Shown: one piece after another, positions 32,503 to 64,000 of the stretch
Numbering within the stretch: position 1 is the first letter of the stretch
How the letters are laid out: each line of letters begins with the position of its first letter
The notes under the pieces: model-generated
Database searches by the model: none
What the model was told of the DNA's origin: nothing
The model's input: only the letters and a program-made list of their open reading frames with translations
DNA from: a candidate division TA06 bacterium
Lineage (GTDB): Bacteria; Hydrothermota; DG-26; E44-bin18
Length of the DNA: 64,000 nucleotides
NCBI GenBank assembly: GCA_004376575.1
Contig: SOJN01000046.1
Coordinates: forward strand, 48,709 to 112,708
Direction of reading: 5' to 3'
Translations under genes and position numbers: made by a program

Positions 32503-37632
<5,130 letters not shown>

Positions 37633-44761: not shown

Positions 44762-44836
44762 TATCGGTGGGTAGGGCAGGGACCGGGGTGTGCACGCAGC
44801 GTTCGTAATCTTCAGTGCAGGACTGGAGCCGACATT

Positions 44837-45902: not shown

Positions 45903-45918
45903 TGGCATGTTTTTTGCT
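45903..45918 (+). promoter_or_regulatory. sigma-54 promoter TGGCAT-N5-TTGCT
   Basis: ttGGcatgttttttGCt has correct GG-N10-GC spacing, about 135 nt upstream of receiver paralog 1. Confidence 0.45.
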
Positions 45919-46053
45919 CAGTCTTAGTAGTGACACGGAAAACATGCAGTCTGAACCGGGGTCTGCGACATACTGTGGCATCTTTGCCCATTGTTATTTG
46001 AGTTTTAACCCGAGTCATTGTGCGACCCTGGTCAGTGCGTTGAGAGAAAGGCA

Positions 46054-46431
46054 ATGGCAAGAGTACTGATAGTTGAACAGGACGTCCTTTTTGGGAAGAT
46101 GCTAAGAGACCTGACTTCTGCCCAGGGGATAGAACCCGATTTGTGTCAAGGACTCGGAGAAGCGATTCTTAAGCTGCGGGAACACCACTACCAAGCTCTG
46201 GTTGTCGACATAGATCAGGAGAGTCTTGATCCTGCCGACGTGATTGGCGTCTTGAAGGCAGTCTCTCCCGGGGTGTCAGTTATTGCGATCACGGATGAGA
46301 ATCGGCTGGAAATGGAGAAACACGTCAGGGAACAAGGAATTTTCTATTACCTTGTGAAGCCGGTTGAGGAAAGAGAATACGCTGAAGCCGTCAATAGGGC
46401 TCTTCAATATTCGGATTCCTTCGCAGTTTGA
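46054..46431 (+). CDS. single-domain receiver protein, paralog 1
   Basis: MARVLIVEQD, Asp in ALVVDIDQ, T in AITDE, K in YYLVKP. 125 aa. About 50% identical to 49487..49864. Confidence 0.65.
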   Translation: MARVLIVEQDVLFGKMLRDLTSAQGIEPDLCQGLGEAILKLREHHYQALVVDIDQESLDPADVIGVLKAVSPGVSVIAITDENRLEMEKHVREQGIFYYLVKPVEEREYAEAVNRALQYSDSFAV

Positions 46432-46513: not shown

Positions 46514-47220
46514 TTGGCGATGTCGGAGTCGTCCAAATCAATCTATCTGATTGGCTTTTTCTTTTTCGTTACTGCTGCTGCTGCACAGGAATCAGAGCCC
46601 TACTGGAAACTGGGCAATGTTCTTCCTGATTTTGGCCGCGACTCCTATGGTGAAGACGCTTACGAAAGAAGCAGTGCATTCAGAACCGACATAAACATTG
46701 TTAGGGCCGGTCTCGACTCAGATTGGCTCTACATAGAGATAGACTGCGAGGATTCCTTCTCTGGCAGCAGTGATGACCATGCAATAGAGTTGGACAACGA
46801 CCCTCTAGACGAATCAGATAGGGGTGACTGGCTCATATACGTTGGTGGGTGTGATGCTTTGGTCGATTCGGTCTGGGTCAAGGGCAAGAATGTGGGGAAG
46901 TTGTGCGGGCGCAGGCAAGAATTTATGGATTTGACCTGATGCAGAACTTCCCGAACCCGTTTGTAAACGTGACTTCAATGCGGTTCTCAGTTCCGGGTAG
47001 ATCATCTTCAAAAGAGAAAGTGAAAACATCTATCGACATTTTTGACGTGTCGGGTCGGTTGATCAGGAGACTCATACGGGAAGATATGTTCCCCGGCGTG
47101 TATCAGGTGGTCTGGGACGGAAAGACAACGGAAGCAAAAGGCGCTCCGTCAGCGATCTATTTGTGCAGATTGAAGATTGGAGAAAGGAGCGGAACAAGAA
47201 AGGTTCTTCTGCTAAGATAA
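46514..47220 (+). pseudogene. secreted T9SS-CTD protein split by a -1 frameshift near 46890-46925
   Basis: The frame-2 ORF (46514..46939) encodes a signal peptide and an N-domain. The T9SS CTD (FDLMQNFPNPF...IDIFDVSGRLIRRL...YLCRL) continues in frame 1 up to 47220. Confidence 0.5.
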
Positions 47221-47616: not shown

Positions 47617-49251
47617 TTGCCAAAAAAAGAGGTATACACTTTCTTAGTAGTCTTCTGGTGCATACTAGTGCTCACCTATGGAACATCTTCAGGTGTGAGC
47701 GTCAACTGGGCTGGGGTATGCGGCTCAAGCAAATACCTGCAGGATGAGAATGACCGTAATCTCAAGGGTGTGTGGTTTGATTTCAGCTCGTGCGGACACA
47801 CAGTGTACGACCTTGTTTACCTGGTCTGGGACCAGGATATGGACGGCATTGAAGAGTTTGACTGTGATAGGCAGTTGGACGGAGACAGCATAGCAGACAG
47901 TATTTTCATAGGCCAGGGCGTTTTCTGCAACACTCCACCATGTTCTTCTGGTGGATTTTCCACAAACTTTACCTGGGGCGGTGAAGGCGACCTAGACACT
48001 TTTTACGTAATAGCGCTGAATGATACAACGCGTGCGTGGGCTACCTACTACGGAACGAGCGCTCAGCACAGCCCTTCTCTCTGGGAGGTTGACAACACTC
48101 AGGAGGCCGCAACGATAATCTGTAATGCAAATAGCACTTGGAAAACGGATACCGAGTTTCCAGACTCAGCGACCTTCACCGGGACCTCGATTGCGGGTAA
48201 TGCAGAACCAGGTGATAGGAAAGTTGGTATGGCTAAGATAGCAGCAGTAATAGGTACGGAAACTGCTATTTGGAATTCGATTAAGGTGGACAATGGGCCC
48301 AGCGCTGGATGCACCAATGATGACGAGGACATAGATTCAGTCAAGATATATAGGGAGGTTTCTGGAGCTGGCTTCGATCCCAGTGATGATCTGCTCATAG
48401 GTGAGGCGGAGTGGGGGCCGGGCCCTCCAGATGGGGGAACAGCCACAGTCACTTTCTTCGACCCGGAAACGTTGACCACCACCTCTGTAGATTACTACAT
48501 AGCTTTTGATATTGAAGCGAGCGCAGTCCGGAGCCACTGTGCCGCTGCCTGCATTCAGAATGACACATACTTTGGAATAAGTGCACCCGACTGCATTGAT
48601 GGGAACTTTCCATTCTGCTCTGGTGACGCGGGCCTTCCAGTGGAGATATCGAGATTCGAGGCTTTCGCAGGCGACAGGATGGTCACTCTTGAATGGACAA
48701 CCCAGACCGAGATCGATAATAGAGGCTTTCATATTTACAGGGCTTTGTCCGAAGATGGTGTCTTTTCCAGAGTGAATCAGGAGATGATCCCCGGGGCTGG
48801 AAATTCATCTTTGCCCATTGATTATGAGTACATAGATAGGGGCTTGAATAATGGGACTGAATATTTCTACAAATTGGTAAGTGTCACCTACGGCAATGAC
48901 TTGTCCTACTATGAAAATGTGGTCAGTGCGATGCCAAGGAAAGAACACTGGGGGAGGTCGGCAGACCAGACAGGCCTCTACGGATGCAGTCCCAACCCCT
49001 TCATCAGCTCTGCTCAGATTTCCTTCCAGTTGAGAGATGAGGCGGTCTCGAGCAGCGTGAGTCTTCAGGTTTACGACGTTTCCGGGAGGCTGGTCAGGAC
49101 CCTTGCGCAGGGGCATTTCGATTCTGGAGCCCACATGGTCCCGTGGGACGGGCTCGATGAGGGAGGCAAGCCTGTTCCCTCCGCTCTTTACTTCTGCCGG
49201 CTGAGGACCGACGAGGTTATTTCCATCATGAAGGTCGTAAAGGTAGATTAG
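47617..49251 (+). CDS. secreted protein with an N-terminal 'VNW / WDxDxDGI' domain and a T9SS C-terminal sorting domain
   Basis: Signal peptide. VSVNWAGV...LVWDQDMDGIEEFD is similar to the 53548 and 57220 proteins. The C-terminus LQVYDVSGRLVRTL...PSALYFCRLRT...KVVKVD is the CTD. Confidence 0.75.
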   Translation: MPKKEVYTFLVVFWCILVLTYGTSSGVSVNWAGVCGSSKYLQDENDRNLKGVWFDFSSCGHTVYDLVYLVWDQDMDGIEEFDCDRQLDGDSIADSIFIGQGVFCNTPPCSSGGFSTNFTWGGEGDLDTFYVIALNDTTRAWATYYGTSAQHSPSLWEVDNTQEAATIICNANSTWKTDTEFPDSATFTGTSIAGNAEPGDRKVGMAKIAAVIGTETAIWNSIKVDNGPSAGCTNDDEDIDSVKIYREVSGAGFDPSDDLLIGEAEWGPGPPDGGTATVTFFDPETLTTTSVDYYIAFDIEASAVRSHCAAACIQNDTYFGISAPDCIDGNFPFCSGDAGLPVEISRFEAFAGDRMVTLEWTTQTEIDNRGFHIYRALSEDGVFSRVNQEMIPGAGNSSLPIDYEYIDRGLNNGTEYFYKLVSVTYGNDLSYYENVVSAMPRKEHWGRSADQTGLYGCSPNPFISSAQISFQLRDEAVSSSVSLQVYDVSGRLVRTLAQGHFDSGAHMVPWDGLDEGGKPVPSALYFCRLRTDEVISIMKVVKVD

Positions 49252-49316: not shown

Positions 49317-49433
49317 CGTTACGGGTGCCCCCCAATCATGACAGCGACCGCAACACGTTGGGCCGCTTTTCGAGTTTTGTAAGTTCTTTATGACACGTAT
49401 GTTACATGTCCATTACTTGTGTCCTGCAAAAGA

Positions 49434-49448
49434 GGCACGGAAATTGCA
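49434..49448 (+). promoter_or_regulatory. sigma-54 promoter GGCACG-N4-TTGCA
   Basis: agaGGCACGgaaaTTGCAgc is a perfect -24/-12 match, 39 nt upstream of the GTG start. Confidence 0.55.
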
Positions 49449-49486
49449 GCGCCTTGTTTGGCGCAGGTCAAACAAGGAGGGAAGCC

Positions 49487-49864
49487 GTGAGCGCTGTGTT
49501 GATTGTTGAGCATGACCCTGCCTACCGCAGGAAGTTTTTCGATCTTGCCTCTGAGTACACCGAGGAGACAGATTTCTGTACGCGAACCTGGCAGGCCATA
49601 GAAATGGTCCAGACCAAGAACTACTCATCCGTGGTGGTTGATCTGGACCAGGAGGGGATAGATCCCGTTGATGCGATCGAGGTGATCAAGGGGATCTCTC
49701 CGGGCACCGCAATCATAGCAGTGACCGAAAGGAACCGCCTGGAACTGGAGAAGACCGTAAGGAAAGAAGGTATCTTTTACTACATGGTCAAGCCTCTGGA
49801 CGATGATGAGTTCAGAGAAGCAATAGAGCGAGCAGTAGATTGCTACGGCGAGGCCTGGGAGTAG
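49487..49864 (+). CDS. single-domain receiver protein, paralog 2
   Basis: GTG start 6 nt after AGGAGG. VLIVEHD, VVVDLDQ, AVTE, YYMVKP. 125 aa. Confidence 0.65.
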   Translation: MSAVLIVEHDPAYRRKFFDLASEYTEETDFCTRTWQAIEMVQTKNYSSVVVDLDQEGIDPVDAIEVIKGISPGTAIIAVTERNRLELEKTVRKEGIFYYMVKPLDDDEFREAIERAVDCYGEAWE

Positions 49865-49880: not shown

Positions 49881-50512
49881 GCGATAAGCTTCGCATTTCG
49901 CCAGAGTTTCAAGCCATCTCCTGATAGAGGCTTCCCTCTGTGATCAAGGGTCTCAACTAGTTAGGAGAGGCATGGACTCTGGCACTCTTTTTGCTCAACA
50001 TTTCGTTGGGAAAGGTTCATAGGTGACGATATGGCAAACACAAACAACAAAGCTTCAAAGAATGCACCGTTTCTTTTCATGGTTGATGATGGCGATGCAT
50101 GTGCCAGCGGGCTGGTGGCTTACGGTAGGCCTCTAAGGACGTCTCTCGGTTCTCAGGAAGTTGACTCCGGGGTTGCATCCTGTGCCAGTTCCATGATGAA
50201 GTGGATGGCCATATACTCGGAAGATGGGAGCGAGCCTGAACAACATGCCCTTGTTTGGCACACAGCCTGCTTCGCTTTCTAGAGCGCTTTTCCCGCCAGT
50301 TTAACAGGGTGCTATCGTTTACCCCTATGCGGTACTGCAGAAGTAGATTCTGTCGATTGACAGAGCATCTCGTTCATCAAGGATGGGACAATTGCTAACA
50401 ACATTTTGTTACATGTGTCATTCAACTCTGGCCCAATCCGGAGCGGCAAAATGTTACAGAGCGCGAACAGAAGCTACAGAGGGCTTTTTCAGGTATTCTT
50501 TGTGGTCACATA

Positions 50513-50528
50513 TGGCACACTTATTGAT
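50513..50528 (+). promoter_or_regulatory. sigma-54-like promoter TGGCAC-N5-TTGAT (non-canonical -12)
   Basis: atatGGCACacttaTTGATac lies 70 nt upstream of ATG 50599. The same variant occurs at 54943. Confidence 0.4.
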
Positions 50529-50598: not shown

Positions 50599-53520
50599 AT
50601 GAATAAAAGTACAATAGTATTCAGCAACTGGAAATGTAGGAGATTGAAATTCCTGGCCAGCCTGGCTGCAGCAGGTTGCGTCTTGCTTTTCGCAAACCGG
50701 TGTGCAGGCGAGGTTGCCTGGTGGGACACAGACCATGACGAGAGAGCTCAGCTTATTGTTCAAAATCAATCCAGCAATACGCTTTACGCAGGGTATCCTG
50801 TGGCTGAGAGTCTGGACACCGGAACTCTCGTTTCTGCTGGCGACATGCTTGCCTCTGGAAACGATCTGAGGATTATTTACTACAATGGCGCGTCCAACGT
50901 GGAATTGGACAGGCGAATCATTTACATGAATTCCGACACCACGTTGGTCTGGTTCGCTGTTCAGCAGGATATAGCGCCTTCAGCAGCTGACAGCAACTAC
51001 TGGATGTACTACAACCACCCTTCAGCTTCAGCACCAAATGTTGACATTGACAGCATATTCGTGCCACCAAAAGATGGTTACAGTGCTGCACTCTACTTTT
51101 TCGAATCAGGCTCCGGTACGACCCTTGAAGACACTTCCGGGAATGACAATGATGGGACTGTTAATAACATGGACAACACCAACTGGGTCGAGGGAAAGCA
51201 CTCTCTTGGCCTTCACTTTGACGGGTCTAGTGAATATATCTCCGTTCCTGACGACGCCATCCTTGACATAGAAGACGAGATAACCTTGGAGACCTGGTTC
51301 AAACTCGATAATGCCTTCGGCCCCGATTCTGAAAACTATGACATGTCGCTCCTAGAAAAAGGGCCTTACGGCCTTAGGCTCGACCACGTTACAGGAGAAC
51401 TTGTATTCAGTCTTTCCGGTTGGACTGTGGAGTACGACTCTCCTCAGAGTGAGATCTATTCCTTGGCCCTCTACAACGGGAAGCTTTTCGCTGGTACTGG
51501 AGAGAGTGGCATAGTCCATACCTTTGACGGAGCCACGTGGTCTAGCGAGGACATCACTGATGAAAAGGATGTGATGTGCCTTTGCGTTTACGGAGGCAAG
51601 CTTTATGCTGGCACAGGTGAAGCGCAGGGTATTGGAGGCGGGAAGATTTATGTCTACGATGGCATAAGCTGGGTCCTGGAGTATGATACGCCAAGCAAAA
51701 ATATCCGCTCGATGGCCGTATACAGAGATACCCTTTTCGCAGGGAGCGGGAATTCGGGGTTGGTCTATAAGTTTGACGGGACTTCCTGGTCAAGTCAGGA
51801 TATTACAAACGATTGGGACATTTTCTCTCTACGAGTATACAACAACAAACTGTATGCTGGTACGGGGAACCCTTCGGCACAAGGCAAGGGATATTTCTAC
51901 TCGTACGATGGAACTTGGTCTCTTGAGTACGACAGCCCGTCAAAGAACATTTATTCGATGGCCGTATACACAGATACCCTTTTCGCGACGAGCGGGGATG
52001 AGGGGTTGGTGTATAAGTTTGACGGGACTTCCTGGTCGAGTGAAGATATTACATCACAAAAGGATGTGCTCTCCATATTTGTATATTCAGGCAAGCTCTA
52101 TGCAGGTACCGGGACCTTTGGATCTCCTATAGGGGCCGGGCTAATATACGAGTATGACGGCTCCTCATGGTCTCTTTCCTATAACACCCCTCAAAAAGAT
52201 GTATTCAGTCTTGGCGATTACAATGGCCTTCTCTATCTAGGCACTGGCAATTCTGGAATAATCTACACCTACCCTGATGAGGCGGTCTTGGCGTCTGCGC
52301 AGGGTTTATGGAACGCCGCCCAGTTCTACCACGTTGCAGGAACCTTTGATGGTTCTGACATGAAGATTTTTGTGGATGGGATTTTGGATACATCAAACTC
52401 GGTAAGTGTGATCATAGACAAGGACACTTCAGCACTGATGATTGGCGGAGGAATCGACACCACCTTTTTCAGAGGTTCTCTAGATGGTATGGGAGTTTCA
52501 GGTGTGGCGAGGACCGATTTCTGGTACGCCAAAATATCGCCAGAACCCACTGTGGCACTGGCTGGCACGGGGACATATACCTCCATGGGAGATATCAACA
52601 GGAGTACTTCGGACGGAAACATCGCCATCTATTGGCGGAGTGTCAGCGGAAGGACCTATGACGTTTTTTACTGCGATACTCTCCAGGGAACCTACACGGA
52701 TGTAGCAGATGTGGTTGCCAGTGGTGACACCACGAGCTGGACAGATGATGGTTCTGCTACGGGTACGCATCCTGATTCTGTTGTGGCCAGGTTCTACAGG
52801 GTTGAGTGCCAGACAGGAGCACTGAGCAGAAATACCACGGGCAAGATGAAGAGATCGATTGTCTCCGGGATGCAGCTCGTCAGCAACCCATTTATTCCAT
52901 ACAACTCATCGATTCAGAGTGTGCTTGGCGGACAGTTGACAGGAGCTGCGGATGAAGGGTATGCAGACAGGGTCTGGAAGTACGATACTGACATAGACGA
53001 CTACGTCTTTGCATGGCTGGTTGCTGGAGTTGGCGCGCCTTACGATGGAAAGTGGTGGAGTTCTCAGGACTTTGAGGAATCAACAATGGATCTGGGTCCT
53101 GACTGCGGTTTCTGGATACAATCGAGAAATGCAGCCCAGGAGATGACTTTTGTTGGTGAGGTCTCGGATACTTCTGACAGGGTGATATCGATTGTCTCAG
53201 GGATGCAGTTGTTTGGGAGCCCCTATCCGGATACAGTTCTCCTGAAGAACTCAGACCTGATTGAAGATGGTGCGACAGGTGCTACGACTGAACTGAATGC
53301 CGATAGGATTTGGTGGTGGGATCCTGATTCAACTAAGTACGACTATGCGTGGTTGGTGGACGATACGGGAGGCCCGAACGATAGTCTATGGTGGGATTCA
53401 GACCCCTGGGGTGAGACTTCAATCACTCTGAGGCCCGGCGAGGGTTACTGGTATCAGACAAGAGGTAACCCATTTACCTGGAGTTATTCGAAGCCCTATG
53501 ATGCGCCACCAAATCCGTAA
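50599..53520 (+). CDS. large secreted repeat protein (about 45-aa YAGTG/beta-propeller-like repeats, a LamG-like region, and a C-terminal tandem about-120-aa domain) with no T9SS CTD
   Basis: ATG 50599 has a GAGGAG RBS and a signal peptide. Repeats of the form LYAGTG...G.VY.FDG.SWS...DIT. The C-terminal 250 aa (VARFYRVE...GKWWSSQDF...WWDSDPWG...YWYQTRG) is shared with 55168..57201. Confidence 0.75.
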   Translation: MNKSTIVFSNWKCRRLKFLASLAAAGCVLLFANRCAGEVAWWDTDHDERAQLIVQNQSSNTLYAGYPVAESLDTGTLVSAGDMLASGNDLRIIYYNGASNVELDRRIIYMNSDTTLVWFAVQQDIAPSAADSNYWMYYNHPSASAPNVDIDSIFVPPKDGYSAALYFFESGSGTTLEDTSGNDNDGTVNNMDNTNWVEGKHSLGLHFDGSSEYISVPDDAILDIEDEITLETWFKLDNAFGPDSENYDMSLLEKGPYGLRLDHVTGELVFSLSGWTVEYDSPQSEIYSLALYNGKLFAGTGESGIVHTFDGATWSSEDITDEKDVMCLCVYGGKLYAGTGEAQGIGGGKIYVYDGISWVLEYDTPSKNIRSMAVYRDTLFAGSGNSGLVYKFDGTSWSSQDITNDWDIFSLRVYNNKLYAGTGNPSAQGKGYFYSYDGTWSLEYDSPSKNIYSMAVYTDTLFATSGDEGLVYKFDGTSWSSEDITSQKDVLSIFVYSGKLYAGTGTFGSPIGAGLIYEYDGSSWSLSYNTPQKDVFSLGDYNGLLYLGTGNSGIIYTYPDEAVLASAQGLWNAAQFYHVAGTFDGSDMKIFVDGILDTSNSVSVIIDKDTSALMIGGGIDTTFFRGSLDGMGVSGVARTDFWYAKISPEPTVALAGTGTYTSMGDINRSTSDGNIAIYWRSVSGRTYDVFYCDTLQGTYTDVADVVASGDTTSWTDDGSATGTHPDSVVARFYRVECQTGALSRNTTGKMKRSIVSGMQLVSNPFIPYNSSIQSVLGGQLTGAADEGYADRVWKYDTDIDDYVFAWLVAGVGAPYDGKWWSSQDFEESTMDLGPDCGFWIQSRNAAQEMTFVGEVSDTSDRVISIVSGMQLFGSPYPDTVLLKNSDLIEDGATGATTELNADRIWWWDPDSTKYDYAWLVDDTGGPNDSLWWDSDPWGETSITLRPGEGYWYQTRGNPFTWSYSKPYDAPPNP

Positions 53521-53532
53521 TAGAGAACAGAA

Positions 53533-54420
53533 ATGGAGGTGATGCCCGTGAAAAAGTTAGTTGCGTGTATTTCGTTGACGGCGTTGGTCTTTCTGATTGC
53601 AGCCCCGGCCGCATCTAATGTGGGGATAAATGTCAACTGGGGTGCATTCACTCATCCCATACTGGACAAGGGTGGCAAACCGCTGGATGATTTGTGTCTT
53701 GTTCAACTCATCTGGGATGCTGATGGAGATGGAATCGATCCGCCTGGTGAAGATGGTCTTCCTTCTGGCGGAGATGAGCTTCTTGATATCTCGTATACAG
53801 GATGTGGCAGCTTCTTTGCAGGCAAGTTCTCCGAGAATACGAATCTCAAGATTGTGGGAAGAGGTGAGTGTATCTATGTGAGAGCCTGGAATGCAGAAAA
53901 GATCGGTAAGGCCACACACTATGGTGATACGAGAGTTTTGGATCCCGGTCTGTGGGTCGTAGACAACAGGGTTGGCTTGACTGTGGATGCTACAGAAGAC
54001 ACGCCCTGGGGGACAACGCTTTGGTGGGGACCGGCGGACGTCCCGCTTGGGAGGCTGGCCAGGTACTATCGTACGGAACTCCTTCAGAACCGTCCGAATC
54101 CCTTCTTGGGGAATACGACAATAGGCTACTGCGTTCCTGGCGTACGAACCTGGGAGATGATGAAGGGTGGAGACAGGAATGCCGTATATGATGAGACTGA
54201 CCTGAATAGTGTGAGTGTCAGGATATACGATGTGTCTGGGAGGATGGTGAGGAAAGTAGTTGGTGCACACAGGCTGCCCGGCTATCACCAAATCGCCTGG
54301 GACGCAAAAGACGACCTTGGGAGAAGAGTTCCCTCGGGCTCATATTTCTGCAGGCTGTCTATTAAGAAGTCAGATGGGTCGGCCAGGACGATTACCAAGA
54401 AGATGGTGCTTTTGAAATAA
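53533..54420 (+). CDS. small secreted 'VNWGAF / WDADGDGID' protein with a T9SS C-terminal sorting domain (partner of the upstream large protein)
   Basis: Signal peptide. VNWGAFTHPILD...LVQLIWDADGDGIDPPGEDGLPSGGDELLD. CTD LLQNRPNPF...VRIYDVSGRMVRKV...SGSYFCRLS...KKMVLLK. The likely start is GTG 53548, which has GGAGGTG upstream. Confidence 0.75.
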   Translation: MEVMPVKKLVACISLTALVFLIAAPAASNVGINVNWGAFTHPILDKGGKPLDDLCLVQLIWDADGDGIDPPGEDGLPSGGDELLDISYTGCGSFFAGKFSENTNLKIVGRGECIYVRAWNAEKIGKATHYGDTRVLDPGLWVVDNRVGLTVDATEDTPWGTTLWWGPADVPLGRLARYYRTELLQNRPNPFLGNTTIGYCVPGVRTWEMMKGGDRNAVYDETDLNSVSVRIYDVSGRMVRKVVGAHRLPGYHQIAWDAKDDLGRRVPSGSYFCRLSIKKSDGSARTITKKMVLLK

Positions 54421-54446
54421 ACGACAATATCTTCCCTCCCACACAT

Positions 54447-54477
54447 GCCCTCTGTGATCAGTTTTCGCGCAGAGGGC
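54447..54477 (+). terminator. hairpin gccctctg-N15-cagagggc after the CTD gene (possible terminator)
   Basis: 8-bp GC stem. The downstream T-tract is weak. Confidence 0.3.
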
Positions 54478-54489
54478 ACTTCCTTTCTA

Positions 54490-54547
54490 CGAAGTACAAA
54501 GTACAAAATGCAAAGTACAACGCATAAGGTACGGAGTACAGTACAGA
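54490..54547. repeat. tandem AAGTACAA motif array
   Basis: cgaagtacaaagtacaaaatgcaaagtacaacg...ggtacggagtacagtacag. Confidence 0.5.
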
Positions 54548-54942
54548 GACCTCAATCCGAAAGCAAGACATTGGAACCACTAGATTACACAAGATTAACA
54601 CAGATTGAAACCCATCCTCATGGTTCAACCCGAACCAGAAGGATAATCTTGTGGTAATCTGTGAAAATCTGTGGTTCAGAGGCTTTCGAGGAGGTGGGGT
54701 CAGGCGTGCACTTTTGGACTTTTGCCCTTTGACCTTGCTCAGGACCTTTGGACTTTTGAAGAATTGCCAATTGTGAATCGGGAAAGAATGAGTAGAGAGT
54801 ACAGAGGACAAAGGCGCGAGGCGCGTAACGGTTTGTTATATCAGTACTTGGGTTCTAACCGTGGGGCACTGTGGCGGAGTGCAAAAAGCGACAAAACAGA
54901 GCCTGTGGAGCGTCTTTTGGAGACTGTTTTCGTGCTCATTTC

Positions 54943-54958
54943 TGGCACAGTTATTGAT
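54943..54958 (+). promoter_or_regulatory. sigma-54-like promoter TGGCAC-N5-TTGAT
   Basis: tcTGGCACagttaTTGATgc lies 210 nt upstream of ATG 55168. Confidence 0.4.
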
Positions 54959-55167
54959 GCTTAATGCATACGTGGGGTGCGGTGACTCGGTGGGAAATAG
55001 GCAATTGAACGGAAGGTTGGTTGTTACTAAGTGACAATAGCCGAGAGACTTACTAGGTCAAATCCTCTCGCACTGACTTATCTCTACTGCTATGAGAGCC
55101 TGGAATATGTTGTTATATTTGTCAGGAACAACGCAATGTGTTGTTACATGCCGTAGGAGGGGTTCTC

Positions 55168-57201
55168 ATGAAACCAAAACTTGTTAGAAGTAGATTCTCG
55201 GTGACTGCCCTGGTCGTCATCAGCATCATGTTCTGGGGAGTGACTTTCTCAGGAGACTGGCAGAGATACAGTGTGGATGAGAGGCCGCCAATGGACGTGA
55301 TTGCCCTGGCTGTTGGAGATGTCGATAATGATGGGGACAATGAAGTGGTAGCTGGAGGAACTGGCTCGGGACTTAGAATTTATGATGGAGCAAAATGCTC
55401 CTGGAACTCCGAAGAGATTGTCGCGGGATTGAAGATAAATTCAGTCACAGTTTCAGATGCAGACAATGATGGCGAACAAGAAGTAGTCTGCGGCACAGCC
55501 GATAAAAGGGTCATTCTGTATCAGTTCACGAGGAATGAGTGGATTGAACACATAGTCGATGCCAATGCGGGTAAAGCCGTTTTGTCAGTAGCCTGTGGAG
55601 ACGCCGACAATGACAGCTACATCGAGATCGTCGCGGGGACAGAGGGAAAGAAAGTATACATCTATGAGGGCTCAGGGGATTCGTGGACAAAGACATTGGT
55701 CGATGGAAATGCCGTGAACGATGTGATGGCCGTGGCTGTTGGAGATGCGGATGGAGATGGTCAGATGGAGATAGTGTGCGGGACAATGGGGAAGAGGGTT
55801 TACGTGTATGAGAAAAACGGGGAATCGTGGGAAAGGAGCGAAGTTGATCGCAAGGTCGGTTCCGCGGTAAGGAGTATTGACATAGGGGATTGTGATGGGG
55901 ATGGGGCGATGGAGATTGTTGTCGGCACAGACGAGAAGGGAGTGAACCAGTACAAGTGGGACGGATCGTCATGGTCAATGGAGACTATTGACTCGAAAGT
56001 GGGAGGAGAGGTTTACGGCGTGAGGATCTGTGACGTGGGTGACGACGTGTCAAGAAGACTGGCTGTCATAGTAAGAAGGAAGAAGGGGAAGAAGGGGAAC
56101 AAGGGGAACAGACTTCTGCTCTATAAGAAAGGACCGTCTGGCTGGGTTAGCACAGAGGTAGACGCTGAGGTGGAAGGAGAGGCGACAGCTCTCGCCATAG
56201 GGGATGCTAATGATGACGGGCACATTGAGCTACTTGCTGGCACATCGAAAAAGAGGAACCTTTTCATCTACGACCAATGGGCATTCTATGGTTTACAAAA
56301 AGTGACAGGGACTGATGACATTGTGCTGAACTGGCCGGGTAAACCTGGTATAACATATGAAGTTTTTTATTCCCATCAACCTTACGCGGGATTCCAGTAC
56401 GTTGCCGGTGTATCTGCGGTGACTGACTCGGTTCAGTGGATTGATGATGGCAGCATTATAGGCGTACACCCCAAGGATGTTGTTGCCAGGTACTACAGGA
56501 TCAGACTGAAGGGTTTCAAGAACTTTTCCAATACTGTTGGAAAATTCTCTAGAGCACTCGAAACTGAAATGCATCTTGTGTCTATGCCGCTTATCCCTTA
56601 TTCCACATCCGTACAGGATGTCATCGGAGACCAGCTGACGGGTGCACCAGATGAGTCGTATGCGGACAGAGTGTGGAAGTGGGATGCAGATATTCAAGAC
56701 TTTGCATACGCCTGGCTTGTTGACGGAGTCGGGCCGCCGTTTGACGGCAAGTGGTGGAGTTCTGGTCATTTCGGACCCTCCACTATGACCCTCAATTTTG
56801 GAGAGGGATTCTTCATTCAGACAAGGCACGAGAATCAAATGGTCACCTTTCTAGGCTCTGTGCCAGAGTGTGTCGTCTCCGTGGCTGATATCCGTCCGGG
56901 GTTGCAGATGATTGGCACACCATCGCCTGAGATTCTCCCGCTTGACGGTTGTGGGTTCCAGGCTAGCGGCGCAAAAGGAGCTCCGTCCGAGCTTTTGGCT
57001 GATAGAGTGTGGTACTGGGACGAGGATGGCCTTTTCTATACATACTCATGGCTTATGGACCGCACTGACGCACCTGAAGACGCCAGATGGTGGTCCTCAG
57101 ACCCCATGGGCCCGACTAAGATGACTATGATACCAGGGCAAGGTTACTGGTATCAGGCGAGAGGGACTGGATTTGCTTGGAGTTTTGCAAGACAAAGGTG
57201 A
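55168..57201 (+). CDS. secreted FG-GAP-repeat beta-propeller protein with a C-terminal tandem about-120-aa domain and no CTD
   Basis: AGGAGG RBS. Six or seven FG-GAP units (GDxDNDGxxEVVxGT...). The C-terminal 250 aa is paralogous to the end of 50599..53520. Confidence 0.75.
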   Translation: MKPKLVRSRFSVTALVVISIMFWGVTFSGDWQRYSVDERPPMDVIALAVGDVDNDGDNEVVAGGTGSGLRIYDGAKCSWNSEEIVAGLKINSVTVSDADNDGEQEVVCGTADKRVILYQFTRNEWIEHIVDANAGKAVLSVACGDADNDSYIEIVAGTEGKKVYIYEGSGDSWTKTLVDGNAVNDVMAVAVGDADGDGQMEIVCGTMGKRVYVYEKNGESWERSEVDRKVGSAVRSIDIGDCDGDGAMEIVVGTDEKGVNQYKWDGSSWSMETIDSKVGGEVYGVRICDVGDDVSRRLAVIVRRKKGKKGNKGNRLLLYKKGPSGWVSTEVDAEVEGEATALAIGDANDDGHIELLAGTSKKRNLFIYDQWAFYGLQKVTGTDDIVLNWPGKPGITYEVFYSHQPYAGFQYVAGVSAVTDSVQWIDDGSIIGVHPKDVVARYYRIRLKGFKNFSNTVGKFSRALETEMHLVSMPLIPYSTSVQDVIGDQLTGAPDESYADRVWKWDADIQDFAYAWLVDGVGPPFDGKWWSSGHFGPSTMTLNFGEGFFIQTRHENQMVTFLGSVPECVVSVADIRPGLQMIGTPSPEILPLDGCGFQASGAKGAPSELLADRVWYWDEDGLFYTYSWLMDRTDAPEDARWWSSDPMGPTKMTMIPGQGYWYQARGTGFAWSFARQR

Positions 57202-57219
57202 AAAAATGGAGGTGTCTAC

Positions 57220-58146
57220 ATGCAGAAGGCGTGTGTGATTCTCTTGGGATTTGCGTTATGTCTTGTGGTTGCGAATCCGCCATCATCTGGGGCTGGTGTG
57301 GTTGCCAACGGGGACGCGTTTAGAAAAGCCATACTGGACGATGTTGGAGTAGCGGTAAACTGGGGCGCATTTCAAAATCCCATACTTGACCATGATGGTT
57401 CAGTGATAGACGATGGATGTCTTGTTCAACTCATCTGGGACGCTGATGGAGATGGAATCGATGAGCCCGGTGAAGGTGGCATTCCCTCTGGAGGGGATGA
57501 ACTTCTGGATGTCTCGTACACCAGACAGGGTTCATTCTTCCCCGGCAAATTCTCGAACAATACAACACTAGGTAACGTGGGTGTAGGTGAGCGCATCTAC
57601 GTGCGTGCCTGGAACGCAGAGACTGTTAAGAACGCAACTTACTATGGCGATACTAGACTGGTCCAGCCGAGTCTGTGGAGTGTCGGCAACAGCATGAGAA
57701 TGGCACTGGACGCGACTGAGGGTGGGAGTTGGAGCACGACAGCGCGTTGGTCACTGCAAGGAGTCCTGTTGTGGAGGTTGGAAAGGACCTATTCTGCGGA
57801 GCTCCTCCAGAACCATCCGAATCCGTTTAAAGGGCATACCGCCATAACCTATTGGGTTGCGGGTAGACGAGTGTGGGGAATGACCGATGATGGAAAGGAC
57901 ATAATCACCTATTACGGCGGATCTGATAACAACATTGCCAACGTGTCCGTGTACGATGCAACAGGTAGATGCGTTCGCAAATTAGTTGATGAGGCGCGGG
58001 TGCCTGGATTTTACCAGGTCGTCTGGGATGGAAGAGACGATCTTGGACAAAAGGTGCCCTCGAGTTCATATTTCTGCAGGCTCTCTACAAAAAACTTAGA
58101 CGGCTCGGCCACAACGATCACCAAGAAGATGATACTTCTGAAGTAG
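57220..58146 (+). CDS. small secreted 'VNWGAF / WDADGDGID' protein with a T9SS CTD (paralog of 53548..54420)
   Basis: GGAGGTG RBS in the same context as its paralog. VNWGAFQNPILD...LVQLIWDADGDGIDEPGEGGIPSGGDELLD. CTD LLQNHPNPF...VYDATGRCVRKL...SSSYFCRLS...KKMILLK. Confidence 0.8.
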   Translation: MQKACVILLGFALCLVVANPPSSGAGVVANGDAFRKAILDDVGVAVNWGAFQNPILDHDGSVIDDGCLVQLIWDADGDGIDEPGEGGIPSGGDELLDVSYTRQGSFFPGKFSNNTTLGNVGVGERIYVRAWNAETVKNATYYGDTRLVQPSLWSVGNSMRMALDATEGGSWSTTARWSLQGVLLWRLERTYSAELLQNHPNPFKGHTAITYWVAGRRVWGMTDDGKDIITYYGGSDNNIANVSVYDATGRCVRKLVDEARVPGFYQVVWDGRDDLGQKVPSSSYFCRLSTKNLDGSATTITKKMILLK

Positions 58147-58622: not shown

Positions 58623-58673
58623 AAACCACTGGTGGAATCGGGCTTAATTAAGTTTGTGAGGAGGGGTCTGCGT

Positions 58674-61600
58674 GTGGCTTTCCGATCGAGAGGCTTGCCT
58701 CTCCTTTTTCTCATTCTGGCATATCCGTGCCTGGCCCTCTCTTTTGGCGCTGAGACAGAACGCACATCCCTGATAGAAATTGTCGCCCTGGGCCCTGAGA
58801 GAGTAGAGATAGAAGTCACCTGTGGCTCTATCGCTAACATGGCGTTGACAGGCGACTCTCTGAGTACCTTTTCGGTTACGATCCCCGGGTTTGATCAAGA
58901 TTGCACACCTTTTGGCCCCTGTCTGCCGGTCAAGGGCTTTGCCGTTGGCATTCCGGTGGATGCAGACCCCGCAGTCACCATTATTGAGAAGAGTTCTTAT
59001 GATCTGAAGATACCATCAGGATGGCCAAGCTCGCTGGGGAGTTCTGAGATTCAATCTCCCGTTGAGATTGGACTGGTTGGCTTCATAAGAGATCTGAAAG
59101 TTGCCCAGATTCTGATCCATCCCGTCGCTTATCTTCCTGAGACCAAAACCCTGAGGGTTTATGATCACATCAGGTTTGTTGTCAGATTTAAATCCAATTA
59201 TGCTGGTCCAATTGATGGCCTCGGTACCCAGGACCCTCTGGATAGGCTTCTGTACTCTCTGGTCATAAATCCCGAGCAGTCGAGTAAATACAAGGTGAGA
59301 AGGCAAAGAGATAACAGACAAAGCAATCTGCTCGCCGGTGGAACTGAAAGGTATAAGATCCTTGTTCAAGAAGAGGGAATATACAGGATAACTGGTTCTG
59401 AGCTTGAGGCTGCGGGCATGGAGATCGAGTGGGTAGACCCTCGTATGATCCACCTTGAAAACCTTGGTCAACCTGTTCCCCTCTATGTCCACGGGGATGC
59501 TGATGGGAAGCTGGACGAGGACGACTACCTGGAATTCTACGGAGAAGGACCAAGAGGTGACTATACTTATTTCAACATGTATGCCACTTCTAATGTGTAC
59601 TGGCTCTTTGTGGGTGATTCTCTAGGTCTTCCCATGATTGAAGAGGATGGTGGTCTTCTGGAGACTGACCCAGCGCAGTTGGAAATGCCGACCTCTTACG
59701 ATTTCGATGTACACACCGAAGTGGATAACTGGTTCGAAAGGCTTCCCAACGACACCATGGTGCAGCAGGATATGTGGTTCTGGGACATGGTGAGTGCGAG
59801 TGAGCAGGCAATAAAGGACTTTCCTCTGGATCTTCCGGATCCGGATTTGGGCTCAGGGGACACCGTTGTGGTGAAACTGGGGCTTCAGGGAATGAGCCAT
59901 CATGGGGATGTCAACCCCGACCACCACTGCTTATTCTATTTGAGCGGTGCACTTGCAGGTGGAACCTACTGGGATGGACAGCACACGCATGTTTTCAGTT
60001 CTGAGGAGGAAGGAACAGGACTGGAAAACACTGTGCTCTCTGAGTCCGGCAACAAGCTTACCATCGTGATGCCCGGGGATACGCCGGCGGGATTTGAGGA
60101 CAGAGTTCTCGTTAACTGGATTGAGATTAGCTACACAAGGCAGTATAAGGCAGAAAATGATTACATCCGTTTTTCCAAACCTCGCAATGGAAGTATCGGG
60201 CTGTATCAGTTCACCATAGAGGGTTTCACGACCCCTGAGGTTTCCATCTACAAACTGGGAAAGAGTAAGCTGGCAAATCTGTCCATAGAGCCTGTCATAT
60301 TATTTGGGGACACGTCATACCAGGCTGCTTTCCAGACGAGAATAGTCTCTGAGGGTGTGGAGTTTGTGGCCGTCGCGGAATCCAGAAAAAAGAAAGTTGT
60401 TTCGCTGGAGAAAGATCAACCTTCTGACCTGCACTCAAGCCTGAATGGTGCCGACATCATAGTCGTGGTGCATGATTCCCTGGCCGTTTCCGCAGAAGAG
60501 TATGAGACTTTTAGAGAGTCCCAGGGCTACAGGGTCGAACTGGTGAACGTGAGTGATGTTTACGATGAGTTCAGTTATGGAATAAGAGACGCAAGCGCGA
60601 TAAGAGATTTCTTGAGGTATGCCTATTTGAATTGGATTCCTCCCGCTCCTTCGATGTGTGTTCTGATTGGCGATGGTAGTAGTGACGATAGAGACCTGAA
60701 CAAGAGGGGAGGGAACCTGATCCCTGTTCACGTTGAGAGGTCCATCTACAGCGGGCTGGTGGCCAGTGATAACTGGTACGCTTGCATCATCGGCGATGAC
60801 TTTCTCCCTGATATGATTGTCTCCAGGTTTCCTGTATTGACTCGCCAGGAGCTTTCGTCTGTCATAGAAAAGCTCAAAAGGCATGAGGACAGATCCACCG
60901 TGGGTGCATGGAGGGGGAGAGTGCTCTGTGCTGCGGGTGAAGGAGGGGGCTTCGGGGTAAGATTCAGAGAGCTGATGGAAGACAGCATCGCGAAAATCTA
61001 CCTTCCAATCTGGGCTGACGGAAAGAGGGTATACGCAGAGCATCTGCCCGGAGTTGACCCTGACCCCTTTTACGGAGACAAGGGCGATCTTTTCGGCTTC
61101 TTAAATGATGGTGTGTCGGTAGTCCAGTATCTCGGCCACGGAAGTGGAGGGACTTGGTCCAACCCTTATCTTTTGACTCCCCAGGATGTGCCGGACCTGG
61201 ACAATACGGGTAAGATACCAGTGGTGGCGAGCTTCACATGTTTCACTTCCGTGTTCGACCAGCCCAGCAGACAAGGCCTGGGTGAAGCGTTGTTCCTCGA
61301 ACCGGAAGGGGGCGCAGTCGCGGTGATCGGGGCAACATCCCTCGGCTATTTCTGGGAGGATGTGGACCTGGCGCGCTCATTCAACCAGACGATGGTGGAG
61401 GATTCCACAAGAACCGTGGGGTCGCTCTTCTATGGTTCAAAACTGAACTACGCATTCTCCAACTATGGAGGCTACGCCGCCACAATGATTAAGTGCTACT
61501 GCATGCTGGGTGATCCCGCCTCCCGGTTCTCATTACCAGTTCGAGAAGTTGAAGTGGGTGTCTATCCCCGGTCTGTGGGCAAAGGCGACAGCGTGAGATT

Positions 61601-63509
61601 GGAGTTGCGTTTGACTTCGCAGAAGCCGGATTCCGCGTTCGTCTGTGTGAGCGATTCAGCCGGCACCTTTGGTGAGACAGTCATTCCGCTGGCTGGTGGC
61701 CAGGGAGCGATCAGCTTTGAGGTACCTATGGGAGTCAAGTCGGGAATGGCGTTGGCCAGAGCCTATGCGTGGGATACAGAATCGGCATTTGACGCTCTGG
61801 GCGCCGCGGAGTTCGCCATCTCATCGCCGTCCATCTATCTGGTAAAGACCATTCCCCAGAAGCCCGGACCATGGGATTCGGTTCACGTGATGGCCTGTAT
61901 CCAATACAGTCCTGGGATCGACTCGGCAAACACCTACTGGGCAAGATCGAGAAGCCCTCAAAACTGGAACACGATAGGGATGACAGCCATTGCCGGAGAT
62001 ACCTTCCAGACCTCATCGCCTATTCCTCAACAAACTCCGGACAAGCCGGTCTGCTATAAGGTAGTTGCGTACGGGTCAGATGGAAAGACGCTGGAGAGCG
62101 CGCTGTACTCATACCAGGTCCCGGATAGACCTAATCTCCTTCTCCTCAGCGAGGAAGACATCTACCTTGGAGGAGAAAGAAGGGTCACGTTGTCTGCGAA
62201 GGTCTTCAACACCGGAAGCGTTGAGGTTGACTCATGTCCGGTCCTATTCAAAACTCTTCCTGACAGTCTTTCCATTGGCGAAGGTTGGGCCTCTGTGCCG
62301 GTCCTCGGGTACGGGGAGGCTTCTGTCCCCTGGTCCCTCGGAGGGTTGCTCTGGAGTGTCTATGTCGAGATAGACCCTGGAAACGAGATTGATGAGTCTC
62401 GGGAGGATGACAACTCGAGCATCAACTCACCAACCACAATCATCGTGGATAGATTCAATGTCTCAAAGGAATCCGGCACCTCAGGATGGGTGAGCAGCAT
62501 TGACTCCAATCTAGTTTGCAGCATACCATCCGACGCTGTGAGCGACAGCGTTGTACTTCAGATTCAGGTTGTAGAACCGCACGTGATGGAACAGCCGAGT
62601 CTGAGGTTTGCCGCCCTTCCAGGTTTCAAATCGGGAGGTGCGTACAAGCTCTCCCTTGCTGATAGCAGTGACACTCTGCTGTCGGGAAAGGAAATGGTCC
62701 TCAAAATGAGATTCGACAGTGAGGACTCCTTGAATAACGAGGAGCTGGATCTCATGGGAATCTACGCGTTCAATCCGCTCACTTTGAAATGGAAAAAGTA
62801 CGGAGGCCAAATAGATTCTTCAGAGATGAGTCTTCAGGCGAGAAAGCTTCGGGAGTATGCAGTGATCACGAGCGGTGACGTTCAACCACCTGAGATCAAA
62901 GTCTCTGTCAAGGACCAGGCCTTTGCCAGTGGAGACTTTGTCCCCGCCAGCCCTGCAATTTCTTTTCTCCTGATAGACGACAATGGCATTGATATGGAGA
63001 AAGGGCTTCTTCTGGTTCTGGACGGTGAGGATGTTGGGATTGCGGACTATGTGTACCCTGGAATATTTGGTGATGCAAATGAGGTGCAGGTCGGTTTTTA
63101 CCCTCATCTAACAGATGGTCCTCATACCATAAGGGTTGGTTGCTGGGACTGCTCTGGCAATTTCAGAAGTTTGGACTTCGCCGTACAGGTTCAGTCCGAA
63201 TTCCAGGTGACAGGCCTGGGCAACTACCCCAATCCCGTAGAGTCAAGAGAGACCGTTTTCGCATTCACCATGACTGCAGTCGCCGATGAGGCTGAGCTGA
63301 GGATTTACACACCTTCGGGAAGGCTCGTCAAATCGTTCGACAGAGGGAGATGGCGGGATCTCAAGGAGATAGGGTATCATGAAGTGGTCTGGAACCTGAC
63401 AGACGAAGATTGGTTTCCAGTAGCGAATGGTCTCTACTTCTATATGTTCAGGGCTAAGATAGAGAATAAGACCATAAAGGAGACGGGCAAATTGGCGGTA
63501 TTGAGATGA
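58674..63509 (+). CDS. very large secreted peptidase C25 (gingipain-like cysteine protease) with a T9SS C-terminal sorting domain
   Basis: Signal peptide MAFRSRGLPLLFLILAYPCLALSFG. Gingipain catalytic region VQYLGHGSGGTWSNPY...KIPVVASFTCFTSVFD (His in GHG, Cys in FTCF). CTD LGNYPNPVESRETVFAF...LRIYTPSGRLVKSF...GLYFYMFRA...KLAVLR. The track start is GTG 58632. Confidence 0.75.
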   Translation: MAFRSRGLPLLFLILAYPCLALSFGAETERTSLIEIVALGPERVEIEVTCGSIANMALTGDSLSTFSVTIPGFDQDCTPFGPCLPVKGFAVGIPVDADPAVTIIEKSSYDLKIPSGWPSSLGSSEIQSPVEIGLVGFIRDLKVAQILIHPVAYLPETKTLRVYDHIRFVVRFKSNYAGPIDGLGTQDPLDRLLYSLVINPEQSSKYKVRRQRDNRQSNLLAGGTERYKILVQEEGIYRITGSELEAAGMEIEWVDPRMIHLENLGQPVPLYVHGDADGKLDEDDYLEFYGEGPRGDYTYFNMYATSNVYWLFVGDSLGLPMIEEDGGLLETDPAQLEMPTSYDFDVHTEVDNWFERLPNDTMVQQDMWFWDMVSASEQAIKDFPLDLPDPDLGSGDTVVVKLGLQGMSHHGDVNPDHHCLFYLSGALAGGTYWDGQHTHVFSSEEEGTGLENTVLSESGNKLTIVMPGDTPAGFEDRVLVNWIEISYTRQYKAENDYIRFSKPRNGSIGLYQFTIEGFTTPEVSIYKLGKSKLANLSIEPVILFGDTSYQAAFQTRIVSEGVEFVAVAESRKKKVVSLEKDQPSDLHSSLNGADIIVVVHDSLAVSAEEYETFRESQGYRVELVNVSDVYDEFSYGIRDASAIRDFLRYAYLNWIPPAPSMCVLIGDGSSDDRDLNKRGGNLIPVHVERSIYSGLVASDNWYACIIGDDFLPDMIVSRFPVLTRQELSSVIEKLKRHEDRSTVGAWRGRVLCAAGEGGGFGVRFRELMEDSIAKIYLPIWADGKRVYAEHLPGVDPDPFYGDKGDLFGFLNDGVSVVQYLGHGSGGTWSNPYLLTPQDVPDLDNTGKIPVVASFTCFTSVFDQPSRQGLGEALFLEPEGGAVAVIGATSLGYFWEDVDLARSFNQTMVEDSTRTVGSLFYGSKLNYAFSNYGGYAATMIKCYCMLGDPASRFSLPVREVEVGVYPRSVGKGDSVRLELRLTSQKPDSAFVCVSDSAGTFGETVIPLAGGQGAISFEVPMGVKSGMALARAYAWDTESAFDALGAAEFAISSPSIYLVKTIPQKPGPWDSVHVMACIQYSPGIDSANTYWARSRSPQNWNTIGMTAIAGDTFQTSSPIPQQTPDKPVCYKVVAYGSDGKTLESALYSYQVPDRPNLLLLSEEDIYLGGERRVTLSAKVFNTGSVEVDSCPVLFKTLPDSLSIGEGWASVPVLGYGEASVPWSLGGLLWSVYVEIDPGNEIDESREDDNSSINSPTTIIVDRFNVSKESGTSGWVSSIDSNLVCSIPSDAVSDSVVLQIQVVEPHVMEQPSLRFAALPGFKSGGAYKLSLADSSDTLLSGKEMVLKMRFDSEDSLNNEELDLMGIYAFNPLTLKWKKYGGQIDSSEMSLQARKLREYAVITSGDVQPPEIKVSVKDQAFASGDFVPASPAISFLLIDDNGIDMEKGLLLVLDGEDVGIADYVYPGIFGDANEVQVGFYPHLTDGPHTIRVGCWDCSGNFRSLDFAVQVQSEFQVTGLGNYPNPVESRETVFAFTMTAVADEAELRIYTPSGRLVKSFDRGRWRDLKEIGYHEVVWNLTDEDWFPVANGLYFYMFRAKIENKTIKETGKLAVLR

Positions 63510-64000
63510 GTTTTAGGCTGGGCATAGGTATTGTTGCAGTAGTTCTTGTGTTTCCTGTTACATCATCAGGGGGAAGATATGCCGGCGACTTCCTGGACAT
63601 TGGGGTGGGGGGAAGGGCCCTGGGTATGGGGGGAGCTTTTGTTGCTCTGGCCAACGATGGTAGTGCGGCGTTTTTCAATCCTGCTGGTTTTGGACAGCTT
63701 GAAAAGAAGGGAATAACCCTTATGCACACCTGGCTCTTTATGGGGATGGCGAACTATGACTTTTTGAGTTTTGCCGGCCCTGTTGGAGACGGTCTTGGCA
63801 TAGGCCTCTCGTTGGTAAGGCTGGGCGTGGACGAGATTCCCATCTTTCCCGAGCTTTCAGGAACACCTGATGAAAGGAGAGACTCCCTGGAGTTGAGGCC
63901 TGACGGTACGCCTCTGGGGTATTTTCAAGATGCGGAATATGCCGCTTACCTGAGCGTGGGCAAGGCTATCACTTACGAGTTTGGAAAAGGTGTGAGGTAT
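63506..64000 (+). CDS. FadL-family outer-membrane beta-barrel, possibly a PorV/PorQ-type T9SS protein (3'-truncated by the window end)
   Basis: The ATG overlaps the peptidase stop (ATGA). Signal peptide. GGRALGMGGAFVALANDGSAAFFNPAG resembles the FadL/PorV N-terminal motif. Confidence 0.45.
   Translation, partial: MSFRLGIGIVAVVLVFPVTSSGGRYAGDFLDIGVGGRALGMGGAFVALANDGSAAFFNPAGFGQLEKKGITLMHTWLFMGMANYDFLSFAGPVGDGLGIGLSLVRLGVDEIPIFPELSGTPDERRDSLELRPDGTPLGYFQDAEYAAYLSVGKAITYEFGKGVRY

Follow-up and report, generated by a model that had tools for sequence, protein, structure and literature searches.

In cellulosomes, highly diverse proteins carry a docking domain at their C-terminus (the dockerin), and the complementary beta-sandwich (the cohesin) is harbored by a separately encoded, anchor-bearing protein; the scaffoldins are anchored by SLH domains or by sortase, and adaptors embedding both domains exist. 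In Bacteroidota, the type A cargo of the T9SS (type IX secretion system) bears a C-terminal sorting domain (CTD) and is handled by the PorU-PorV-PorZ-PorQ attachment complex. In Tat hitch-hiker export and in peroxisomal piggy-back import, a protein lacking a signal is carried by a partner that possesses a targeting signal (reviewed in PMC9251779), and a further sorting route is that of PEP-CTERM proteins and exosortase (PMC1569441). The surface and secreted proteomes of uncultured diderms are predicted from sorting signals of this kind, i.e., T9SS CTDs and PEP-CTERM tails. In this work, two neighboring gene pairs were analyzed in a window of 64,000 nucleotides (the whole stretch of DNA under investigation) from a candidate division TA06 bacterium (contig SOJN01000046.1 of assembly GCA_004376575.1). 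In each pair, a gene encoding a large protein without a sorting domain is followed by a gene encoding a small protein, which starts with a domain here referred to as YVRAWN and ends with a T9SS-type CTD. The comparison of these pairs with their homologs suggests that each operon probably couples a cargo with the anchor that matches it, representing a widespread and unannotated docking/anchoring domain pair that would hook tail-less proteins to the cell surface.

The resemblance to the cohesin-dockerin system concerns the general layout: in both cases a C-terminal domain is found on highly diverse cargo, a complementary beta-sandwich is located on a separately encoded protein provided with an anchor, and proteins embedding both domains exist. 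By analogy, the cargo module would correspond to the dockerin and the anchored partner to the cohesin. However, the two domains do not match Pfam dockerin (PF00404, a duplicated calcium-binding F-hand of about 70 aa) or cohesin (PF00963, a nine-stranded jelly roll), and the fold match is generic. As far as the T9SS is concerned, the small partners recall type A cargo, or components of the attachment complex, in that they possess a signal peptide and a C-terminal Ig-like domain of the FlgD_ig/Por_Secre_tail class, and a PorU-like and a PorV-family gene adjoin the pairs. On the other hand, the large proteins fail the test of a C-terminal sorting domain, Ig-like and of about 80-100 aa, that identifies type A cargo by its match to TIGR04183/PF18962, the host belongs to candidate division TA06 and not to Bacteroidota, the CTDs of the small partners do not reach the TIGR04183 cut-off and contain an insertion of about 20 aa, and the matches to PorU, PorU2 and PorV2 are below the respective cut-offs. 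The Tat and peroxisomal cases are alike in concept but differ in machinery and compartment, co-translocation being here only a candidate. Lastly, one distant partner (P0037) passes the PEP-CTERM model TIGR02595, whereas the window partners bear a T9SS-type CTD instead. Searches of the literature on T9SS piggy-backing (i.e., CTD-less proteins carried on T9SS cargo), on PorU2/PorV2 and on TA06 together with T9SS disclosed nothing relevant; neither the C-terminal module nor the YVRAWN domain was found there, nor was a description of cargo docking onto a PEP-CTERM protein.

Both pairs are located on the forward strand. The first one is composed of large1 (50599..53520, 973 aa) and small1 (53533..54420, 295 aa as listed), and the second one of large2 (55168..57201, 677 aa) and small2 (57220..58146, 308 aa). 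The list of open reading frames (ORFs) returned the coordinates given for these genes, and for the gene of protein E (see below), in a preliminary description of the same DNA; the large genes were characterized on the basis of this list, of Pfam and of pairwise alignments. According to Pfam, and as previously noticed, the two large proteins differ in their N-terminal part, which in large1 contains a Laminin_G_3 (LamG) domain into which Kelch-like YAGTG repeats are inserted, and in large2 a signal peptide followed by an FG-GAP/VCBS beta-propeller, after which the C-terminal docking-like module is located. With their LamG/Kelch-like or FG-GAP propeller domains, they are probably ligand-binding surface proteins. 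The last 300 aa of large1 and large2 align without gaps (47% identity, E 3e-90); the common C-terminal tandem domain already recognized in the preliminary description is thus confirmed, even though its length is about 300 aa rather than about 250. The claimed absence of a T9SS CTD from the large proteins also held: none was detected with Pfam or NCBIfam at E<=0.1, and the profile-profile comparison (hhalign) of the cargo module with the window's own CTDs gave a probability of 0.1%. A cryptic CTD in large1 or large2 was ruled out on these grounds. The public entries corresponding to the window proteins (TET46717-TET46719, from a candidate division TA06 metagenome-assembled genome) carry no label other than hypothetical, "FlgD/Vpr Ig-like domain-containing" or "VCBS repeat-containing". 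The N-terminus of large1 (window 50599-50720; ...RRLKFLASLAAAGCVLLF...) might contain a lipoprotein signal (AAGC) instead of a type I signal peptide, and the Cys of this candidate signal is retained in the orthologs P0038 and P0039.

The C-terminal module extends over 52594..53517 in large1 (FN3-like domain at about 52594-52848, repeat 1 at 52849-53184 and repeat 2 at 53185-53517, the end being ...FTWSYSKPYDAPPNP) and over 56293..57198 in large2 (about 56293-56547, 56548-56877 and 56878-57198, respectively), in both cases on the forward strand. It is built of one FN3-like domain and of two repeats of about 105 aa each, sharing 41-48% identity (E about 1e-20). The AlphaFold2 (AF2) model of residues 376-677 of large2, with a predicted local distance difference test score (pLDDT) of 88.9 and a predicted template modelling score (pTM) of 0.84, is all-beta and consists of the FN3-like domain followed by two sandwich repeats reaching the last residues. 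Both repeats are rich in invariant Trp and Gly residues, and the module terminates with a conserved motif, FxWxY(P)KPY, recurrent among the sampled members. No Pfam or NCBIfam model describes this module, and a PDB sequence search returned no match to the module or to the YVRAWN domain, but only matches to the FlgD-like CTD.

When a profile of the module was searched against 1.84 billion representative proteins, 1822 clusters were retrieved with the threshold E<=1e-3, 802 with E<=1e-10 and 193 with E<=1e-30; the E-value obtained with the large1 module (2.7e-138) concerns a sequence that was itself one row of the input of the hidden Markov model. In 64 of the 65 sampled members, the module lies within 12 aa of the protein end. 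The N-terminal domains of the cargo are, on the contrary, diverse, including fn3, TSP3, Big_1, invasin D3, cohesin, Chlamydia PMP and NosD/beta-helix domains, as well as PEGA, peptidase M23, Agd3 deacetylase, FG-GAP and LamG. Sorting and docking modules usually show this pattern, with one C-terminal module found on many kinds of cargo. Giant TSP3/LamG/PA14 proteins, with the module at their N-terminus instead, account for about 20 of the 150 best representatives. In this subfamily (P0136, P0147, P0161, P0165, P0167, P0170, P0171 and P0176; 1300-3450 aa), an FN3-like domain is found after the tandem module, and at L020, the locus of P0161, the gene following that of the module protein encodes an RHS/YD-shell protein.

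The two small proteins are paralogous, as had been proposed (56% identity, E 4e-114). Each of them exhibits a Sec signal peptide (a hydrophobic N-terminus after basic residues, judged by eye, in agreement with the preliminary description), a YVRAWN domain (53614-54012 in small1, 57337-57744 in small2) and a FlgD_ig/T9SS-type CTD (54085-54417 and 57802-58143, respectively). The CTDs score 35.6 and 30.7 bits with Pfam PF13860 FlgD_ig, above its cut-off of 27, and remain under the cut-offs of Por_Secre_tail PF18962 (17 bits) and TIGR04183 (15.4 and 13.9 bits), so that their designation as bona fide T9SS CTDs was slightly too strong as far as their sequence is concerned. Both contain, after the first strand, the insertion of about 20 aa (e.g., GRRVWGMTDDGKDIITYYGGSDNN) mentioned above, which protein E and P0016 lack. 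The YVRAWN domain is a beta-sandwich of about 135 aa at the N-terminus of the small partners. The AF2 model of the small2 N-domain has a pLDDT of 91.1 and, more generally, the AF2 models of the isolated module and YVRAWN domains are confident and look complete. In donor-strand systems (type V or chaperone-usher pili), by comparison, the Ig fold of a subunit is incomplete and is completed by a strand of the next subunit. The WDADGDGID loop, belonging to the region with a DxDxDG motif to which the preliminary description had drawn attention, is indeed conserved within the close subfamily, but not across the YVRAWN family; a DxDxDG "calcium loop" was therefore discarded as a defining feature, being absent from the distant YVRAWN domains.

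The YVRAWN domain weakly resembles the starch-binding CBM20/41 domains. This resemblance, together with the many invariant Trp and Gly residues of both module repeats and with the polysaccharide biosynthesis/export cluster located in the window at about 9.9-29.8 kb, might suggest a different scenario, in which the two proteins do not interact directly, the module binds a glycan or the envelope, fixing the cargo to lipopolysaccharide or exopolysaccharide, and the small protein represents a separate surface protein under common regulation. Such a scenario is extremely improbable, leaving unexplained both the adjacency of the two genes in about ten lineages (with three of three arbitrary picks) and the existence of proteins embedding both domains.

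The two genes of each pair are separated by 12 nt (pair 1) and 18 nt (pair 2), compared with the 11-18 nt previously given. As previously observed, the two partner genes share the same context of the ribosome-binding site: both junctions contain aaATGGAGGTG, which includes GGAGG. The first junction reads ...CCG TAA TAG AGA ACA GAA ATG GAG GTG ATG CCC GTG... and the second one ...AGG TGA AAA AAT GGA GGT GTC TAC ATG.... The true start of small1 is most likely the GTG at 53548, seven nucleotides past GGAGG, which would give a protein of 290 aa, since the NCBI ortholog P0009 is called at 290 aa. The large and small ORFs of each pair are in the same frame, and the possibility that stop-codon read-through joins them was considered. 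This was rejected because large1 ends with TAA TAG; moreover, each small gene has its own ribosome-binding site and signal peptide, and one of the pairs of a close relative (L003) is out of frame.

The adjacency search in other genomes revealed that the pairing recurs. In every informative locus of the C-terminal type inspected, a gene starting with a YVRAWN domain is located directly downstream of the module-bearing gene; these loci belong to about ten lineages, some of which are distant, and the distance between the two genes ranges from an overlap of a few nucleotides to 47 nt. The close relatives L001 and L003 keep both pairs. A JGI contig whose flanks (TrkAH) are unrelated still combines the FG-GAP cargo with a small2-type partner, and the cognate cargo-partner pairing therefore looks conserved. 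At larger distances, where the module homologs share 33-37% identity, the pairing was found in clusters of an SLH type (L004-L007, L010/L011 and L016), and the same adjacency of module and YVRAWN genes was also observed in L013. The reverse check, carried out on three arbitrarily picked distant representatives of the C-terminal type (L017, L018 and L019), gave a YVRAWN gene as the next gene in all three. The word-index homology searches, which under-report both families (10, 18 and 9 matches), retrieved at least 27 YVRAWN proteins, and scans with narrow back-translated patterns found one locus in GTDB genomes (L008) and five in metagenomes. YVRAWN genes appear to be rare, which makes a chance adjacency very unlikely.

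The partner domain is always N-terminal, right after the signal peptide, and is joined to differing envelope signals. In L008, the partner is formed by YCRAWN, an FN3-like domain and a type A CTD positive to TIGR04183 (28.8 bits, above the cut-off). In L009, a giant He_PIG/PKD protein of 2536 aa ends in the module (E 3.5e-24) and overlaps by 4 nt the gene of its partner P0037, in which YVRFWN is combined with a PEP-CTERM tail (TIGR02595 above the cut-off). In L017, the YVRAWN gene follows that of a cargo of 2128 aa, and in L019, a cohesin-containing cargo of 1096 aa is followed by a partner of 271 aa without a recognised sorting tail, as is also the case of P0029-P0035. The behavior is similar to that of "choice-of-anchor" proteins, the same YVRAWN domain being observed with a CTD, a PEP-CTERM or other tails, even though the NCBIfam "choice-of-anchor" models did not match small1, small2 or protein E (E<=0.1) or P0037 (E<=0.01). 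In some cases, module and YVRAWN domain are embedded in a single polypeptide: in P0094 the module precedes YVRAWN, while P0140, P0146 and P0174 carry YVRAWN at the N-terminal end and the module at the C-terminal one. It might be imagined that YVRAWN and module represent the complementary ends (e.g., by strand complementation) of subunits assembled head to tail into a fibre or a pilus-like structure, the window pairs corresponding to tip (the cargo) and anchored base; nevertheless, the fold matches are non-specific and the window proteins cannot polymerise, having only one of the two domains each, so that an assembly of this kind is very improbable.

In L018, a Big_1 cargo of 1044 aa bearing the module is followed by a partner (7144-10689) in which YVRAYN and an FN3-like domain come before a PorU-like C25 peptidase, with a hydrophobic tail at the C-terminus. 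The C-terminus of this peptidase (Gly-Cys, a hydrophobic stretch and a basic tail) looks MYXO-CTERM-like by eye. A fusion of this type, as well as the PorU-like gene placed after the window pairs and the strictly C-terminal position of a module with a terminal FxWxYPKPY motif, would also be in keeping with the module being a sorting or processing signal of a PorU-like sortase and YVRAWN the adaptor recognizing the substrate, with the cargo being cleaved and/or covalently attached. This explanation seems improbable: a module of about 300 aa is very large for a cleaved signal, there is no C25 peptidase in the 10 kb inspected of L009, whose partner has a PEP-CTERM tail, and tail-less partners exist.

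The most satisfactory explanation is therefore that of a docking and anchoring pair, because a strictly C-terminal module on diverse cargo, a partner domain that is always N-terminal and an immediate operon coupling are found together, and also because proteins with both domains exist and the partner swaps its C-terminal envelope signal between lineages. According to this explanation, the small protein would be exported by Sec and its FlgD_ig/T9SS-type CTD would target it to the outer membrane, where it would be retained via the adjacent PorU-like and PorV-like proteins; its N-terminal YVRAWN beta-sandwich would then bind non-covalently the C-terminal module of the cargo, the FN3-like domain, the two Trp-rich beta-sandwich repeats and the FxWxY(P)KPY tail acting as the docking module. 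In this way, a cargo without a sorting signal of its own might be displayed at the cell surface. The idea of a two-component cargo system gains support from the recurrence of the gene pair in about ten lineages, from the envelope-sorting signal of the partner and from the natural proteins with both domains. As for the role of escort or anchor attributed to the small protein, the latter is favored: the occurrence of PEP-CTERM and tail-less partners suggests that the conserved function is general docking/anchoring rather than an escort specific to the T9SS, and the partner made of a PorU-like peptidase with a membrane tail points in the same direction.

Some observations weigh against this explanation. 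The binding of YVRAWN to the module is deduced from comparative genomics alone, and the conserved tryptophans of the module would fit a glycan-binding module too. Partners of about 155 aa without an anchor exist, which shows that some partners do not act as anchors on their own, and in the single locus of the N-terminal type inspected (L020) no YVRAWN partner is found nearby. In addition, except for L017-L019, the loci were reached via searches for one domain or the other. If the module does allow tail-less adhesins and enzymes to be displayed via a small co-encoded adaptor, a class of surface proteins amounting to about 1,800 clusters would be invisible to predictions based on sorting signals, two new domain families would acquire a testable function, and the pair might be turned into a modular tag-and-anchor tool with which proteins are displayed at the surface.

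Directly downstream of the second pair, a gene on the forward strand (58632..63509) encodes a PorU-like C25 peptidase of 1625 aa, which is unusually long and has its own CTD (Peptidase_C25, 1.4e-78). Its scores with NF033707 PorU (320 bits, cut-off 420) and NF052324 PorU2 (192 bits, cut-off 450) indicate a clear homolog that remains below the cut-offs. It overlaps by 4 nt the start of a gene for a PorV/PorQ-family, PorV2-like outer-membrane barrel (63506..64000, forward strand), which is cut by the window end; the fragment of 164 aa scores 98.9 bits with NF052325 PorV2 ("type IX sorting system") and 52.4 bits with NF033709 PorV_fam, both below the cut-offs established for full-length proteins. 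A role of the two products similar to that of PorU and PorV is inferred, as is a surface location of the pairs. None of the T9SS core genes SprA/Sov and PorK/L/M/N was found within the 64-kb window.

The T9SS transports folded proteins. A true piggy-back transport can thus be envisaged, in which cargo and partner bind each other in the periplasm and the CTD of the partner drives the folded complex through the T9SS translocon. It would agree with a cargo having a signal peptide and no sorting domain, with the CTD being on the partner next to PorU/PorV-like genes, and with the tight operon coupling and the shared context of the ribosome-binding site, which suggest a stoichiometric co-synthesis. 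However, the same pair occurs with PEP-CTERM or tail-less partners, for which no T9SS pore is implied, the core genes are missing from the window, and no report of T9SS hitch-hiking was found in the literature; transport of the complex through the T9SS is accordingly considered unlikely. A broader version, according to which the pair is a general system of hitch-hiker export and display and a small escort, with whichever sorting signal, carries the module-bearing cargo across or onto the outer membrane, is likewise doubtful. If correct, piggy-backing would be described here for the first time in sorting of the T9SS and exosortase types. The pair also offers a concrete candidate on which hitch-hiking in T9SS-type sorting could easily be put to the test.

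Protein E (47617..49251, forward strand, 544 aa), for which the combination of the partner N-domain and a CTD in a single polypeptide had been described, indeed shows this organization: a diverged YVRAWN-type N-domain (YVIALN; 40% identity with that of small2 over 101 aa, E 2e-12), a middle domain, an FN3-like domain and a CTD. In layout it matches the "long" partner found in the distant SLH-type clusters, and a cargo gene directly upstream of it is lacking. These clusters (L004 400-13700, and also L005-L007, L010, L011 and L016) are conserved and surface-fibre-like, and belong to another lineage. They contain a giant protein of the PQQ or beta-helix type, fn3 proteins and F5/8-type-C proteins, along with one to four paralogs of about 370 aa (one of which weakly matches DUF11, below the cut-off) and a protein of about 150-195 aa. 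The module protein is followed in most clusters by a protein of about 155 aa and then by a Big_5 protein of about 590 aa, and the clusters end with a PorV-family barrel fused to SLH repeats. According to hmmsearch (E 1e-18 to 2e-5), the protein of about 155 aa is itself a YVRAWN domain, and the Big_5 protein has one at its N-terminus; the C-terminus of the Big_5 protein is CTD-like by reading its sequence and weakly matches the PorU model in its C-terminal part.

The control of PEP-CTERM genes typically involves sigma-54/PrsR, and a parallel can be drawn with the window, which contains sigma-54-type elements and sigma-54 activator genes. A pattern scan disclosed a -24/-12 promoter-like element (TGGCACACTTATTGAT, 50513..50528, forward strand) 70 nt upstream of large1, a site with a perfect consensus further upstream (49980..49995) and another promoter-like element (TGGCACAGTTATTGAT, 54943..54958, forward strand) 210 nt upstream of large2. 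In the spacers of about 740 nt preceding large1 and large2, the sole conserved block contains TGGCACA(C/G)TTATTGAT, with an imperfect -12. The count of such motifs across the whole window is not above chance, and the case for sigma-54 therefore rests on their position and on the conservation between the paralogous upstream regions. The control of the large genes by sigma-54 may be regarded as a lead, and a co-regulation of the two pairs would be in line with it. Further elements of the same type are located at 45903-45918, before the receiver gene starting at 46018, and at 42884-42899 on the reverse strand, before the histidine kinase gene 40668-42422. Four genes for sigma-54 activators (enhancer-binding proteins) are present within 14 kb: 32503-37632, 37718-39178 and 43130-44485 on the reverse strand, and 44618-45820 on the forward strand. 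One of them encodes a fusion of 1709 aa comprising a Ser/Thr kinase, AAA_16, TPR, GAF and the sigma-54 activator domain, and the product of 44618-45820 has no receiver domain.

Two paralogous genes for stand-alone receivers (46018..46431 and 49406..49864) each precede a block of genes for secreted, CTD-bearing proteins, and the same organization is found in L001 and L002. An M1-family peptidase (window 5794-7794) also bears a FlgD_ig/Por_Secre_tail-type CTD, showing that in this TA06 genome the CTD serves ordinary enzyme cargo as well. Finally, the overlapping frames at 46514-46939 and 46903-47220 encode a small secreted protein together with a T9SS-type CTD. They might represent a single frameshifted gene or two separate ones; in the independent assemblies L001 and L002, too, two genes are called with the same split.

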